From the IMG/VR virus record IMGVR_UViG_3300045836_000108, positions 1-64,000 of that record: a stretch of DNA of 64,000 bases. One strand, written 5' to 3'. The translations under genes and the position numbers were made by a program. The DNA is from a virus. Lineage: Duplodnaviria; Heunggongvirae; Uroviricota; Caudoviricetes. The notes beneath the pieces were generated by a model that was not told the origin of the DNA, made no database searches, and was given only the letters and a program-made list of their open reading frames with translations. This document shows, piece after piece, positions 55,021 to 63,730 of this stretch; position 1 is the first letter of the stretch, and every line of letters begins with the position of its first letter.

Positions 55021-55070
55021 GGGGCTTTACTTTGCTTAGGCCTACCAGTAGGCTTATCCCCGTAAGCCAG
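55021..55070 (+). promoter_or_regulatory. Promoter module copy (GGGGCTTTACTTTGCTTAG..TAGGCT..CGTAAGCCA)
   Basis: Consensus copy; divergent from the leftward operon start. Confidence 0.55.
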
Positions 55071-55090
55071 ACCGAACCGGAGGAGCCGAA

Positions 55091-55210
55091 ATGATCTACA
55101 CCGCCCGCGACAAGCAGACCGGCCAGCCCATCTACACCTACAAGGTCGTCGGCGTCACGCCCCAGGGCAAGTTCCAGATCAAGATCATCGAGCGCTTCGA
55201 GATCGTCTGA
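55091..55210 (+). CDS. Tiny protein (39 aa)
   Basis: ATG after GGAGGAG; GC3 ~100%. Confidence 0.45.
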   Translation: MIYTARDKQTGQPIYTYKVVGVTPQGKFQIKIIERFEIV

Positions 55211-55241
55211 CAGACCACGCCGTTTCACCGGAGGAGAAGAC

Positions 55242-55652
55242 GTGAACATCAACATCAAGACGCGCCTGGGACTGCCGGGCCACGCCCGCGTCTACATCAA
55301 CGGCGTCCAGGTAGGCCTGGTCTCCCACGAGCCCGACGGCTGGACGTACGGCACCTACGTCACCGGCGAGCAGCAGCCCCGGTACTCCGAGCAATTCTTC
55401 GGCAACCGCGACCTGGCCGTTAAGGGCCTCATCAAGGCCATCGTGGCGCAGATGCTGACGGACCTGATCGCCGAGTACCCGGAGGCCGTGGGCGAGACCA
55501 TGGCGAACTTCCAGATCCGGAGCGCCCTCATCTCGGCCCGCGCGCAGGTCCGGCTGGAAGACAAGTTCTGGATCGCCTGGTACCTGGACTTGGCCGTGAA
55601 CCACGGCGCCCCGCAGAACCGCATCGACGCCGTCCGCGCTGTCGTCCTGTAG
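55242..55652 (+). CDS. Hypothetical protein (136 aa)
   Basis: GTG after CCGGAGGAGAAG. Confidence 0.5.
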   Translation: MNINIKTRLGLPGHARVYINGVQVGLVSHEPDGWTYGTYVTGEQQPRYSEQFFGNRDLAVKGLIKAIVAQMLTDLIAEYPEAVGETMANFQIRSALISARAQVRLEDKFWIAWYLDLAVNHGAPQNRIDAVRAVVL

Positions 55653-55661
55653 CAACCCGCT

Positions 55662-55683
55662 GCCCCCGGCCGGAGCCGGGGGC
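55662..55683 (+). terminator. Hairpin GCCCCCGGCCGGAGCCGGGGGC
   Basis: Between cassette genes; followed directly by the RBS of the next gene. Confidence 0.45.
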
Positions 55684-55701
55684 TTCCCCAAAGGAGAAGC
55701 C

Positions 55702-56004
55702 GTGACCGAGCAGGACGCTACCGCTCAGGCGCTGGCAGCGCTGGACACGATCACCGCCACCTACAACCGGTCCTACGGGTACGACCGCGAGACCCGCGCC
55801 GTGGCTGACCTTGCCCGTGAGGCGATAGCCAACAAGAATCACCTCTTGGCCGGGCAGTGCGCCAGCACGCTGCGCCGGACCTGCGGGGAACTGGGAGCTA
55901 CCGCTGCCGACGCGATCAGGGCTGCCATGAAGCCGTACGCCGACGCGTTCGCCGAGAAGTGGACCGCTGCGATAGAGGCCAACCGGGACCGGTACGCCGG
56001 GTAG
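55702..56004 (+). CDS. Hypothetical protein (100 aa)
   Basis: GTG after AAAGGAGAAG. Confidence 0.5.
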   Translation: MTEQDATAQALAALDTITATYNRSYGYDRETRAVADLAREAIANKNHLLAGQCASTLRRTCGELGATAADAIRAAMKPYADAFAEKWTAAIEANRDRYAG

Positions 56005-56018
56005 AAACACAGCTGTGA

Positions 56019-56045
56019 GCCCCCTACTACGGTAGGGGGCTTTTC
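56019..56045 (+). terminator. Hairpin GCCCCCTACTACGGTAGGGGGC + TTTTCTGTG
   Basis: Canonical intrinsic terminator. Confidence 0.55.
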
Positions 56046-56333
56046 TGTGCGTCTAGGACAGCTCCGCTTCCCGTTGTACGGCCACTAGGGCGGCAGCGTT
56101 GACGGCGAAAACAATGGCGTGGGAGGCGTCTTTGAACACGACGAGCTTGCCTTCTTCCTGCAAATAGCAGGCGTTGACGCCGACGTAGGCGGTGCCGGAG
56201 CTGTCGGCGTAGGTAACCGTGTAGCGGAACGTGGGCATGGGGGTGTTGGGGGCCACGGCGGTGCTCCTGGTGGTGTTGGTGTTGGTGTTGCGTGCCGAAG
56301 TAGCTATGTAAACGTGTTTATATACGGGTGTAG

Positions 56334-56408
56334 TAGCGGGGACAGGATTTGAACCTGTGACCTCCGGCCTATGAAACCGGCGGGCTGACCGAGCTGCCCC
56401 ACCCCGCG
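56334..56408 (-). tRNA. tRNA-Met (CAT), initiator-like (C1 mismatch; close to E. coli tRNA-fMet)
   Basis: CGCGGGGTGGGGCAGC...TTTCATAG loop...GGTTCAAATCC...CCCCGCTA; C1xU72 mismatch; G-C-rich anticodon stem. Confidence 0.6.
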
Positions 56409-56515
56409 TCGGAGCTGTGAGGATCGCCGCCGCCCGACGGGCTGCGGGCGAATCTCTGAGCCATACCGAAAGTAGCCGGACACGGGTGTCAAGTCAACTG
56501 GAACTAGCATGTCGG

Positions 56516-61663: not shown

Positions 61664-61682
61664 CTTCTGCGCCCGCCTGGAA

Positions 61683-61810
61683 GCCCCCAACGATATCTCC
61701 GTTGGGGGCTTTTCTTTGCTGAGTAACGTCTAAGCCTCCATCGAACTCTCCGGCGGGGGCTTTTACCTGTCCGCTTTACGTAGCTTAGTAAGGGCTATAC
61801 GATACCTACG
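61683..61810 (+). promoter_or_regulatory. Terminator (GCCCCCAACGATATCTCCGTTGGGGGC + TTTTCTTTG) followed by a promoter module with duplicated CTTTAC
   Basis: GGGGGCTTTTACCTGTCCGCTTTACGTAGCTTAG..TACGAT. Confidence 0.55.
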
Positions 61811-61848
61811 TACCTACGTTCTAACCGACCCTGACCTTGGAGGTCATC

Positions 61849-62331
61849 ATGCGCAACCGCACCGCACGCCTGGCCGTAGTCGCAATCAGCGCTCTGGCCT
61901 TCACCCTCACCTCCGTGCCAGCCCATGCCTCCTCTGGCGTCGGCGTTGGAGGCTTCAACTACACGTTCCGCTCCGACCACCACCCCAAGTACTGGCTCCA
62001 CGGCATCAGCTCCGACGCCGCAGACGGGTACTTCAACGACGGCACGTTCAGCGGCGAAGCCGACGTCATCGTGGACGGCAATGACGCCTACTACCTCCAC
62101 GGCCCCGTGGAGCGCTGCCAGGTCCAGCTGAACCGGGTCGTCGGCCACCGCGCCTACCCGATACCGGGCCACACCAACACCAACATCAGCTACGACGGAG
62201 GCCGCTCCTGCTATGCCTGGGACTCGTGGGACGTCCCGGCAGGCCGGTACAACGTCACCGTGTCCTATGAGGCCAACGGCCATTGGTACAACACGGTTCA
62301 GGGACCGGTGGTGAAGTACCTGGGCAACTAG
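61849..62331 (+). CDS. Secreted protein with Sec-type signal peptide (160 aa)
   Basis: MRNRTARLAVVAISALAFTLTSVPAHA/SSG signal; Tyr/Asn/Gly-rich mature part; two Cys. Confidence 0.55.
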   Translation: MRNRTARLAVVAISALAFTLTSVPAHASSGVGVGGFNYTFRSDHHPKYWLHGISSDAADGYFNDGTFSGEADVIVDGNDAYYLHGPVERCQVQLNRVVGHRAYPIPGHTNTNISYDGGRSCYAWDSWDVPAGRYNVTVSYEANGHWYNTVQGPVVKYLGN

Positions 62332-62459
62332 CGCCAGGGTTTACAGTTCCTTACACGTCCGGACAGCCCCCTCAGGAAACCCTGCGGGGGCTTCCGCTTG
62401 CCCTGACGTCGGCTGCCGGAGCATATTGAGGTCAAAAGATCTCTCACCGGAGGACGTCT

Positions 62460-63092
62460 GTGCCCTTTGCCTGCCCTGGCTCTTGCAGCCCTACGGCTGA
62501 CGGAGAACCCATCTGGTGCTCCTCGTGTGCGCAAGTGATCCGGAGCGCACTACGGGCCATTCCTGATGCGTATACGGCCCTGGATTCAGTCAAGTTCTAC
62601 AGCCGTCAGGCGCCTGCCGACGCCGTCCGGGTTTCCGGCTCGCGGGAACGTCCGTCCACCGCCCCAGGAGTGGACATGCGCGATGAGATTTTTCAGACAA
62701 TCCGCTGCTGGGAAGACGACATCAGGCAGCACCTCCGGCACCGTGCCGCACGCGACGGCCGGAGCCGGGAGGAAACCCTGGCGTTGGCGGTGCGGTACCT
62801 GAATCGCAACTTTGTGGCTGCGATGAAGCGGGACCCTGGCGGCTTGGAGTTCGGGGAAGAGGTGCGGGCTTTGTTCTCCTCCGCTCTCCGGCTGGTGAAG
62901 AACGGACCGATACGCAGCCGTCTGACTATCGCCTGTCCCCGGTGCTCCCGACGTTCTCTGGTGCAGCAGGAAGGGTTGGCGGGCAAGGCTTGGTTCACGG
63001 TGTGCGATGAGCGTCTGGCCGGGTGTGGGACGTCGTACACGGAGGTGGAGATGACCTGGATGGTTGAGGTTCGTAAGGCGGTGGCGGCTTGA
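62460..63092 (+). CDS. Cys-rich hypothetical protein (210 aa; CPGSC, CSSC, CPRC, C..C)
   Basis: GTG after CCGGAGGACG; preceded by a degenerate module. Confidence 0.5.
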   Translation: MPFACPGSCSPTADGEPIWCSSCAQVIRSALRAIPDAYTALDSVKFYSRQAPADAVRVSGSRERPSTAPGVDMRDEIFQTIRCWEDDIRQHLRHRAARDGRSREETLALAVRYLNRNFVAAMKRDPGGLEFGEEVRALFSSALRLVKNGPIRSRLTIACPRCSRRSLVQQEGLAGKAWFTVCDERLAGCGTSYTEVEMTWMVEVRKAVAA

Positions 63093-63286
63093 CCCGGACG
63101 TTCGCGCCACTGCCGGACGTGGCGTTGTTTCTAGGGAAGTCCGAACGGACGCTGCGGCGGTGGGTGGCGGAGGGTTTGCTGCCGGAGCGGACGGCGTCCG
63201 GCCGCCGGACGGTTTGCGTGCAGGACGCTATCCGCGTGGATTCTCTGGTGCGTACGCGGTCTAGGGCGCGTCCCCCGGTTATCTAG
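63089..63286 (+). CDS. Small HTH DNA-binding protein (MerR/excisionase-like), last rightward gene
   Basis: LGKSERTLRRWVAEGLLPE helix-turn-helix; 65 aa. Confidence 0.5.
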   Translation: MTRTFAPLPDVALFLGKSERTLRRWVAEGLLPERTASGRRTVCVQDAIRVDSLVRTRSRARPPVI

Positions 63287-63294
63287 ACACGGAA

Positions 63295-63321
63295 GAGCCC
63301 CGGAGGTGTTCTCCGGGGCTC
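63295..63321. terminator. Bidirectional terminator GAGCCCCGGAG-GTGTT-CTCCGGGGCTC between convergent genes
   Basis: Perfect 11-bp stem. Confidence 0.55.
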
Positions 63322-63342
63322 TCCGTGGGTTTCGGCCGGGCG

Positions 63343-63642
63343 CTACGCGTTCCAGGCCGTCAGCAGGTCCGCCGTGAGGCTGGCGGCGGCGTGAGCTGCC
63401 TTCCTGGCGCCGTCGGTCTGGTAGGCCTCGTTCCACCAGACGCCGGTGCCGATGGTGAGCACCGTCTGCTCGGTGTCGTCCAGCTTGATGTTGGTGTGCA
63501 GGTACGACTGGGCCTCGTCGTTGTGGCGGTACACCTCCACCAGGATGTGGTGGCCGTCGGCGCTGAAGTCGGTCTCGATGCGGTAGCCCTGGTTGTCGTC
63601 CAGGTCGGTGACGTACTCGTGCAGAAATTCGATGTCTGCCAC
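63343..63642 (-). CDS. Hypothetical protein (99 aa) driven by a leftward copy of the promoter module
   Basis: GTG after CCGGAGGAGAAAAC; module at 63681-63730 on the - strand. Confidence 0.5.
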   Translation of the reverse strand: MADIEFLHEYVTDLDDNQGYRIETDFSADGHHILVEVYRHNDEAQSYLHTNIKLDDTEQTVLTIGTGVWWNEAYQTDGARKAAHAAASLTADLLTAWNA

Positions 63643-63680
63643 GTTTTCTCCTCCGGTTGGCGGGGGCTTGTTCCCCCAGG

Positions 63681-63730
63681 GGAAGGCTAGTACCGTCGCT
63701 AAGCAAAGTAAAGCCCCCACGGCCTGTAAG
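63681..63730 (-). promoter_or_regulatory. Promoter module copy on the minus strand
   Basis: Reverse complement reads GGGGGCTTTACTTTGCTTAG..TAGCCT, with an upstream hairpin containing TCCTTACAGG. Confidence 0.55.

Follow-up and report, generated by a model that had tools for sequence, protein, structure and literature searches.

A recurrent putative terminator-promoter-leader module in an uncultivated soil phage, a likely analogue of the promoter-early stem-loops of T4-type phages

In T4-type phages, promoter-early stem-loops (PeSLs) combine a sigma-70 promoter and a stem-loop in one composite element that extends from a stop codon to an ATG and occurs about 50 times per genome (PMC2839356; PMC4122927). 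PeSLs lie in hyperplastic regions upstream of ORFans, bound insertions and deletions, and form mini-circles (Arbiol et al. 2010, PMC2839356; Comeau et al. 2014, PMC4122927). Their promoter and terminator activities as well as the mini-circles have been shown experimentally (PMC2839356, PMC4122927). Morons, described in lambdoid and other tailed phages, are an established concept (discussed in PMC2839356). Repeated promoter motifs also occur in actinophages, since Gordonia phage Vardy (Cluster DJ) contains five copies of a 50-bp intergenic promoter motif with a TATAAT -10 element and a leaderless-type start (PMC9671010). Here we describe a predicted terminator-promoter-leader unit of about 70-110 bp, henceforth the module, that precedes accessory genes of an uncultivated soil phage with a genome of about 102 kb. 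The analyzed stretch, henceforth the window, comprises 64,000 nucleotides (positions 1 to 64,000 of IMG/VR record IMGVR_UViG_3300045836_000108).

The pattern CTTTAC-N3-GCTTAG (searched as CTTTACNNNGCTTAG with up to two mismatches) has 15 matches in the window compared to 1.77 ± 1.30 expected, and none of 100 shuffled sequences reached 15. In 13 of these 15 matches a TANNNT hexamer follows at fixed spacing (CTTTAC-N3-GCTTAG-N9(10)-TANNNT). The 13 copies begin at 28402, 33056, 50317, 55025, 56521, 57227, 57944, 58566, 58964, 60051, 61078 and 61774 on the plus strand, and at 63713 on the minus strand. The gap between TTTACN and TANNNT measures 17 nt in 12 copies and 18 nt in copy 28402, where 10 instead of 9 nt precede the TANNNT hexamer. 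A GGAGG-type Shine-Dalgarno (SD) sequence and a start codon follow on the same strand 66-76 nt past CTTTAC in 12 of the 13 copies (64-76 nt across all phages with the module); for copy 28402 the start is a GTG 99 nt downstream. A profile of all collected copies (nhmmer) revealed no further copies in the window. Hence, the first-pass annotation was right about 13 sites of common architecture (about two being expected by chance), about each of the listed -10 hexamers, about the 17-nt spacer with one 18-nt exception and, as judged by motif search, about enrichment of the element upstream of genes. Of the 13 copies that it counted in the window, only 10 fall into the 8.7-kb segment 55021-63730 (55.0-63.7 kb) under which it described them. 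Module density is indeed highest in the array between 55 and 62 kb. Because at least three more modules occur in the flanking DNA outside the window (near 64153 (-), at 65334 (-), and at about -9.85 kb), the module appears to be the general promoter form for non-structural units of this phage rather than a peculiarity of the right arm. A reading of the copies as miniature inverted-repeat transposable elements or other transposons was rejected, as they are strictly oriented and keep a fixed distance to start codons.

From 36 non-redundant modules of several related phages we derived a consensus that reads, from 5' to 3', upstream stop codon, hairpin, promoter, leader, GGAGGA and ATG. The consensus hairpin is AAAGCCCC-(variable stem)-C-T-[TYAC]-A-G-G-(variable stem)-GGGG, and the consensus promoter is CTTTAC-N3-GCTTAG(CG)-N9-TANNNT-TG. 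After about 5 nt the promoter is followed by (Y)GTAAGC(C/A)A or TGCCAACA and then by an A/C-rich leader. In total, about 45 of about 110 bp are conserved, in many copies per genome.

We consider it probable that this module is a composite of a terminator, a promoter of the host sigma-A type and a short leader, which would insulate accessory genes and mark the hyperplastic region of the genome. According to this proposal the module would run from the previous stop codon to the next start codon in three parts. The first would be an intrinsic-terminator-type hairpin with the stem AAAGCCCC...GGGGCTTT, the 3' arm and short T run of which merge into the -35 box. The second would be a promoter for host RNA polymerase with its primary sigma factor (-35 TTTACN, 17-nt spacer, -10 TANNNT). 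The third would be an A/C-rich, structure-poor leader of about 29 nt, which often starts with GUAAGCCA at the predicted +1 and ends in the GGAGGA ribosome-binding site. Each cassette would thereby turn its cargo gene into an insulated transcription unit, expressed probably early or constitutively. The modules may also mark, and probably supply homology for, the gain, loss and re-sorting of cassettes, as has been proposed for PeSLs of T4-type phages. We infer promoter activity, the sigma factor used, termination, and recombination at modules from the sequence.

The promoter assignment is consistent with several observations. All 13 copies combine a -10 TANNNT hexamer with a TTGACA-like -35 element at 17 ± 1 nt, as expected for primary sigma factors. 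Across 34-36 modules only T1, A2 and T6 of the -10 hexamer are invariant. Conservation limited to these three positions is expected of actinobacterial primary-sigma promoters. A scan with the E. coli-style consensus was passed by one copy only, an outcome to be expected with a high-GC host. The invariant T1/A2/T6, TTTAC at 17 nt upstream, and the fixed distance to SD and ATG thus agree with the promoter reading of the first-pass annotation.

A productive way to find relatives of this element was to scan metagenomes for the motif in a 19-base version. The same module is present in a syntenic 100-kb relative (Ga0136846_1210315, about 75% nucleotide identity; loci L221, L222, and L226, the latter overlapped by L080), in eight small soil contigs and in more distant contigs that were reached by way of a cargo domain. 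We did not find the motif in 80 IMG/VR loci that contain terminase relatives (48-69% amino acid identity), so the module belongs to a narrower clade. A 14-base pattern gave only single chance matches in IMG/VR. With the stricter 19-base pattern, IMG/VR yielded only L080, and the genome contigs of 185,579 bacterial and archaeal species, represented by one genome each, yielded only two isolated, unrelated chance matches. A de novo repeat search with 11-mers returned nothing in loci related via the capsid-region marker protein, all of which cover structural genes only.

Sigma-A by itself does not account for three features of the module, namely the GCTTAG box, the hairpin apex CT[TYAC]AGG at about -55, and the element GTAAGCCA found at the predicted +1. 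The first of these, located at about -28 to -23, is nearly invariant while the N3 before and the N9 after it vary. This invariance could point to a factor-dependent promoter, at which a phage DNA-binding protein reads CTTTAC and GCTTAG, separated by one helical turn, and perhaps also the hairpin apex with its CTTYAC, and activates or retargets host RNA polymerase in the manner of sigma appropriation by MotA/AsiA of T4 or of a phage sigma factor. The cassettes would then form a timed (middle) expression class. The scarcity of the strict pattern among the 185,579 species argues that it is not a common host promoter form. A candidate reader is encoded at 8467-8919 (+), where a protein of 150 amino acids contains two tandem GerE/LuxR helix-turn-helix (HTH) domains, the second of which is NarL-like. 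The GerE/LuxR HTH fold is related to sigma region 4. Like the module, T4 middle promoters combine a host-type TAnnnT -10 element with a GCTT-containing phage-specific box further upstream. However, the MotA box is centered at -30, replaces the -35 element and lies 12 ± 1 bp from the -10 element (PMC2988021), whereas the module keeps a good -35-like TTTAC at the canonical 17 nt and places its box 9-10 bp from the -10 element. Given this spacing and the retained -35-like element, we rejected assignment to the T4 middle promoter class. In addition, no sigma factor, RNA polymerase, MotA or AsiA family was found among the roughly 60 window proteins scanned, which represent part of the genome, and the invariance of GCTTAG stems in part from the way in which the copies were collected. 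We regard a factor-dependent promoter as unlikely.

The element GTAAGCCA is present at the predicted +1 in 7 of the 13 copies, and because it begins at this position it looks like an initial transcribed sequence; the first-pass suggestion of a processing or regulator-binding site was overstated. The conserved leader element noted by the first-pass annotation, CGTAAGCCA, is exact in six modules and has one mismatch in a seventh, but it is not shared by all 13 copies. It starts at +37 from CTTTAC, 7-8 nt past the -10 hexamer and hence at the predicted +1; the bare 9-mer CGTAAGCCA is not enriched in the window. GTAAGC at this position is the reverse complement of GCTTAC and thus close to GCTTAG, so that GCTTA near -28 and the inverted TAAGC near +2 bracket the -10 element in these seven copies and in many copies of relatives. 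This arrangement might indicate repressor operators superimposed on the promoters, comparable to the operators and stoperators of Cluster A mycobacteriophages or to sites for a protein that shuts off early genes. Stoperators are asymmetric intergenic 13-mers without promoter elements that are bound by an immunity repressor and block elongation (PMC9283540). They share with the modules a high number of conserved asymmetric copies oriented with transcription, some of which overlap a -35 element. Neighbors of the array include a MerR/excisionase-like protein (63089-63286) and a ribbon-helix-helix (RHH)-like stretch within 62460-63092. In contrast to stoperators, the modules are complete promoters in all intact copies, with constant spacing of the -10 element and a constant distance to ATG; only a decayed remnant at 61709 lacks promoter elements. 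We therefore rejected the modules as a stoperator array. The half-site at +1 is also missing in 6 of the 13 copies, no integrase was identified in the parts of the genome seen and no repressor homologue among the proteins scanned there. An operator function of this kind strikes us as distinctly unlikely.

Two side observations concern the -10 element and leader. The gene of a CGNR zinc-finger protein (51112-51431 in the window, about 2300-2607 in L222) is preceded 4-5 nt before its start codon by TAGGCTTG (TAGGGTTG in L222), which suggests a leaderless transcript that uses only the -10 part of the module. No module precedes the block that starts at window position 45. The DNA upstream of this block, just left of position 45 (L241 9795-10000), nevertheless has gggTATACGATAC(Y)(Y)TACGT in common with the -10 element and leader of module 61774, which may be a hint of another promoter flavor related to the module.

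The hairpin is fused to the -35 element in five window copies (33056, 57227, 58964, 60051, and 63713), with folding energies of -24 to -31.5 kcal/mol and z values of -3.7 to -8.0. The same fusion is found in most copies of the relatives. The hairpin that the first-pass annotation described as part of the common architecture is thus fused in only five of the 13 window copies. Its YACAGG loop is found in four copies (57227, 58964, 60051, and 63713), copy 33056 having a different hairpin. Each fused hairpin follows a co-directional gene. Copies 55025 and 56521 at divergent junctions are without a hairpin (z about 0). Separate terminator-like hairpins precede copies 57944, 58566, and 61774; at copy 57944, one adjacent stretch folded with z about 0, and another fold gives a weak short hairpin of -14.7 kcal/mol. 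Hairpins where a co-directional gene ends and none at divergent junctions is the distribution expected of terminators.

The central part of the stem differs between phages but remains complementary, the two arms matching each other in at least six variants. The mean energy is -24.7 kcal/mol for native hairpins compared to -18.1 kcal/mol for arm-swapped chimeras, and the covariation score (0.266) exceeds that of shuffled alignments (0.197), none of 500 shuffles being as high. Since the covariance-model alignment remained ungapped, hairpins in two registers are partly mispaired in it (78.7% of cells pair as compared to 73.8% after sliding by +1), and we gave more weight to folds of individual sequences and to the arm-swap test. 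The stability, the covarying stems and the placement after co-directional genes are all consistent with the terminator and insulator role that the first-pass annotation had assigned to the hairpin. The fused stem is followed by just CUUU and then AC, and only two fused hairpins passed a T-run scan. U-poor terminators have been proposed for actinobacteria, and their efficiency is debated. A possible pairing of CAGG in the loop with CCTG in the 5' arm was rejected because it is not conserved in relatives.

The short U run, together with an apex (C-U-[UYAC]-A-G-G) in which three apical pairs and the UYAC loop are conserved while the stem middle covaries, could also be read as a sign that the hairpin serves mainly as a site on RNA rather than as a terminator. 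Its loop would then be recognized by an antiterminator, as in the case of lambda N and boxB, or by an endoribonuclease that produces monocistronic messages, as RNase III does in T7. However, other terminators of the same genome have the same GCCCC...GGGGCTTT stems with unrelated loops, and there was no match to any Rfam family. Furthermore, in one distant relative (forest soil contig L244, ERZ1759910, about 70-110) the hairpin loop is exactly reverse-complemented (CCTGTGAAGA for TCTTCACAGG) with arms and module intact, a change that would destroy a recognition site on RNA. We regard this role as very unlikely. The flipped loop itself suggests an inversion via recombination between the hairpin arms.

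Comparison with related phages indicates that cassette genes are gained, lost, and reshuffled. The cassette 50317-50868 (module, gene for 146 amino acids, terminator) is inserted between the portal and terminase genes on the opposite strand, and in L222 the conserved CGNR zinc-finger gene follows at this position after just about 35 nt. L223 and L231 lack the first array cassette (55025 to about 56300), and in them a conserved gene for 175 amino acids is followed directly by tRNA-Met and a module. L222 has a different gene in place of this cassette, and its homologue of window gene 55242 comes immediately after a module, across the tRNA; this junction falls inside module L222:6686, between the -10 element and SD. 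In phage B, a homologue of 61849-62331 likewise has a module of its own but is found elsewhere in the genome. A strain variant (L233-L235, 96-98.5% identical) lacks 273 bp (window 55698-55970), and this deletion removes the gene for 100 amino acids of the first cassette, which shows that this gene is dispensable. BLAST alignments (high-scoring segment pairs) end within modules in 29 of 70 cases, as compared to 16% expected (p = 3e-7), a count inflated by paralogous matches of the module only. The decayed remnant at 61709, accompanied by two terminator-like hairpins, is evidence of module turnover. These comparisons agree with the earlier suggestion of shuffle-ready cassettes, as cassette content differs between relatives while the module recurs. 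The accompanying notion of one gene per promoter applies to single-gene cassettes elsewhere in the array but not to the first array cassette (three genes), to copies 28402 and 33056, which head multi-gene blocks, or to copy 61078 inside an open reading frame (ORF).

Gain and loss of whole cassettes would also be expected if the modules were recombination sites of a mobile-cassette system with a site-specific recombinase, similar to integron attC sites. The hairpins are imperfect palindromes with a conserved core, and the flipped loop in L244 could be seen in the same light. On the other hand, no recombinase was found beside the array, and the cassettes have promoters of their own, unlike integron cassettes. 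On these two grounds we rejected the attC class. Breakpoints are moreover scattered over -10 elements, leaders, start codons, and interdomain positions without a single crossover point, and we consider such a system extremely improbable.

Several points weigh against the insulated promoter cassette that we favor. A canonical intrinsic terminator would have a stronger T run than the CTTT found behind the hairpin. To our knowledge, primary sigma factors make no base-specific contact at about -28 to -23, where GCTTAG is nonetheless almost invariant, in part owing to ascertainment because the collection pattern contained GCTTAG. A conserved hairpin apex on a varying stem is not required of a plain terminator. 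The breakpoint statistic takes in the module-only paralogous matches, and several breakpoints are inside genes, between domains, and not in modules. Within-genome homogenization is weak, with a non-consensus identity of 0.41-0.46 within genomes as compared to 0.39 between them. Frequent module-to-module recombination is thus not demonstrated, and we rejected concerted evolution of modules within a genome given this weak signal. Because module sequences are only weakly more alike within than between genomes, the conserved positions are held by selection and not by recent homogenization.

The unexplained boxes, together with the tandem LuxR-type HTH, MerR-like, and RHH-like proteins, make a factor-dependent or repressor-controlled version of the promoter cassette conceivable. 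In its most elaborate form, the module would be a multisite platform made up of the apex CTTYACAGG near -55, CTTTAC at -36 and GCTTAG at -28, three sites that roughly share a helical face, as well as an inverted GTAAGCC at +1. A phage-encoded protein, for which the tandem LuxR-type HTH protein 8467-8919 is the candidate, would read this platform and switch the whole accessory set on or off, in a way that resembles sigma appropriation, or target recombination to it. We think this unlikely; if true, it would represent a new actinophage regulatory system. The GCTTAG box and hairpin apex offer well-defined sites for mutation in the search for a possible phage transcription factor.

As an insulated promoter cassette, the module resembles PeSLs in several ways. 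Both consist of sigma-70-like -35/-10 elements with an adjacent stable stem-loop and extend from stop codon to ATG, and their copies, which number in the tens, cluster in hyperplastic regions before ORFans. In both cases insertions, deletions, and replacements between relatives are bounded by the motifs, with the qualification that some breakpoints of this phage are inside genes and many between protein domains. In contrast, the sequences are unrelated, and the siphovirus-type tail and probable actinobacterial host of this phage set it apart from T4. The fused hairpin is always upstream and merges with the -35 element, whereas the hairpin position in PeSLs is variable and their upstream region is AT-rich. 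The GCTTAG box, loop apex, and +1 box are invariant extras of the module. The functions of PeSLs are known from experiment, whereas those of the module are predicted from sequence and comparison. Since lineage, sequence, and hairpin placement differ, the module appears to be an independent analogue of PeSLs and not a member of this class. Cassette 50317-50868 is similar to a moron in that it places one gene, equipped with a promoter and terminator of its own, between conserved genes and is absent in L222. Morons have no common regulatory sequence, whereas here one and the same module recurs at every unit, even at long multi-gene blocks. The Vardy motif is likewise a multicopy intergenic element with a -10 at fixed distance to the gene start in a region of small genes of unknown function; its sequence is unrelated, and neither a fused covarying hairpin nor comparative evidence for shuffling is reported for it. 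Given that PeSLs of T4-type phages (PMC2839356, PMC4122927) and morons share the same logic, the first-pass description of this layout as unusual was overstated.

The occurrence of PeSL-like logic in an unrelated lineage argues for convergent evolution of this genome-plasticity strategy: the principle of reused terminator-promoter cassettes that insulate ORFans would reach beyond T4-type myoviruses of Gram-negative hosts to an unrelated lineage of soil phages. The module set also delimits accessory genes for functional study, including a clade-restricted domain family with an H-x3-C...C-x2-C signature; that these genes are candidates for host takeover or anti-defense is speculation. As compact, naturally insulated promoter, terminator, and 5' untranslated region parts, the modules are candidate tools for high-GC Gram-positive bacteria. 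The modules, hairpins, and cargo genes of the window are listed in Table 1.

Table 1. Predicted modules, hairpins and associated cargo genes in the window.
Feature	Coordinates	Strand	Remarks
Module, -10 TAACGT, 18-nt spacer	28402..28500	+	Divergent junction, no hairpin; heads ORFan block from GTG 28501
Hairpin CCCTTCCGgcgcatgtCGGAAGGG fused to module, -10 TAACGT	33026..33131	+	Heads 33132-33599 and following genes; z -5.9
Module, -10 TAGGGT, CGTAAGCCA leader	50317..50382	+	Moron-like cassette between portal and terminase
Cargo gene 50383-50823 (146 aa, ORFan) and own terminator hairpin 50836-50868	50383..50868	+	Missing at this locus in L222
Module, -10 TAGGCT	55025..55090	+	Divergent junction, no hairpin; three-gene cassette 55091-55210, 55242-55652, 55702-56004
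Module, -10 TACCTT	56521..56589	+	Follows minus-strand tRNA-Met, no hairpin; heads 56590-57183 (197 aa, domains A+Z)
Fused hairpin (loop TTAC, -31.5 kcal/mol) and module, -10 TAAGCT	57193..57295	+	Heads 57296-57751 (151 aa, Z domain); z -8.0
Stand-alone terminator-like hairpin	57761..57792	+	3' of gene 57296-57751
Module, -10 TAGGCT, TGTAAGCCA	57944..58012	+	Heads 58013-58501 (162 aa)
Stand-alone intrinsic-terminator-like hairpin with T run	58514..58537	+	3' of gene 58013-58501
Module TTTACA-17-TATAGT, best sigma-70-like match	58566..58632	+	Heads 58633-58920 (95 aa, R domain)
Fused hairpin and module, -10 TAGGCT	58930..59029	+	Heads 59030-60010 (326 aa, C-terminal R domain); z -5.5
Fused hairpin and module (GCTTAT variant), -10 TAGGAT	60017..60118	+	Heads 60119-61663 (514 aa); z -4.7
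Module, -10 TATGGT	61078..61144	+	In frame, no stop codon, inside 514-aa ORF 60119-61663; no hairpin
Two terminator-like hairpins and decayed module remnant at 61709 (CTTTTCtttGCTGAG, no -10)	61678..61759	+	Between 514-aa gene and module 61774
Module, -10 TACGAT, divergent leader	61774..61848	+	Heads 61849-62331 (160 aa; signal-peptide-like N-terminus by eye only)
Fused hairpin and module, -10 TAGCCT	63643..63747	-	Heads 63343-63642 (99 aa); z -3.7

The cargo genes are clade-restricted ORFans, many of which are built from shuffled domains, namely Z domains that resemble zinc-binding domains and R domains. No cargo protein has a Pfam match and essentially none has a PHROG match; a word-indexed protein search returned only the query itself, and a domain profile search returned nothing. 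The Z domain is a paralogous domain of about 60 residues with an invariant H-T-x2-C ... C-x2-C signature, present in the products of 56590-57183, 57296-57751, and 60119-61663 as well as in L222 and L232. A Z-domain profile has nine matches among 1.84 billion representative proteins, eight of which apparently come from this phage group. The R domain ('LWLRADNAAR...GNGAKLVR') is encoded by 58633-58920 and 59030-60010. These domains form mosaics, such as A+Z in the window versus A+R in relatives, or D1-Z-Z in relatives versus D1-(module 61078 in frame)-Z in the window. In the homologues L222_7229 and L232_1229 a Z domain sits where the window ORF carries module 61078. This internal module could allow separate expression of the C-terminal 172 amino acids (from ATG 61145) alongside the fusion protein. 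A match of P0009 to a DUF7623 repeat protein from an unrelated genome record of 3.65 Mb was rejected as spurious, and a single-sequence AlphaFold (AF2) model of a cargo protein was too poor for use (mean confidence score pLDDT 42).

The window encodes a portal protein (48612-50288, -), a large terminase (51428-53086, -), a tape-measure protein, a tail-tube protein, a GH25 lysin, and a RecT-like protein. The tail genes are of the siphovirus type, and the phage is unrelated to T4. Among the isolated phages of INPHARED we found no near match to the window at the nucleotide level, the terminase is at most 39% identical to that of any isolated phage, and the capsid-region marker protein (35844-37223) has essentially no relative among them. 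An actinobacterial host is probable, since 93 of 97 matches of the GH25 lysin belong to phages that infect actinobacteria. The same phage (96-98.5% identity) was found repeatedly in several soil metagenomes. Two contigs of this phage measure 102,398 bp each, and the locus has different coordinates in them, once running off the contig end, which suggests a circular or terminally redundant genome.

Additional observations concern the surroundings of the array. Modules 28402 and 33056 head a 7-kb island of small ORFans (window 28501-35501, +) that is flanked by minus-strand blocks, with tail genes on one side and portal and terminase on the other, and this island is also present in phage B. ARAGORN reported a tRNA-like gene at 44184-44257 (-), with an anticodon called as two bases, that adjoins tRNA-Pro and tRNA-Ala. 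Just right of the window, on the minus strand, an RNA ligase gene (PF09414) lies beside a TROVE/Ro60-like gene (L234 18838-20594, corresponding to about 65.4-67.2 kb in window coordinates). Considered alongside the window's four tRNA genes, these two genes may point to an RNA-repair or RNA-quality-control module.

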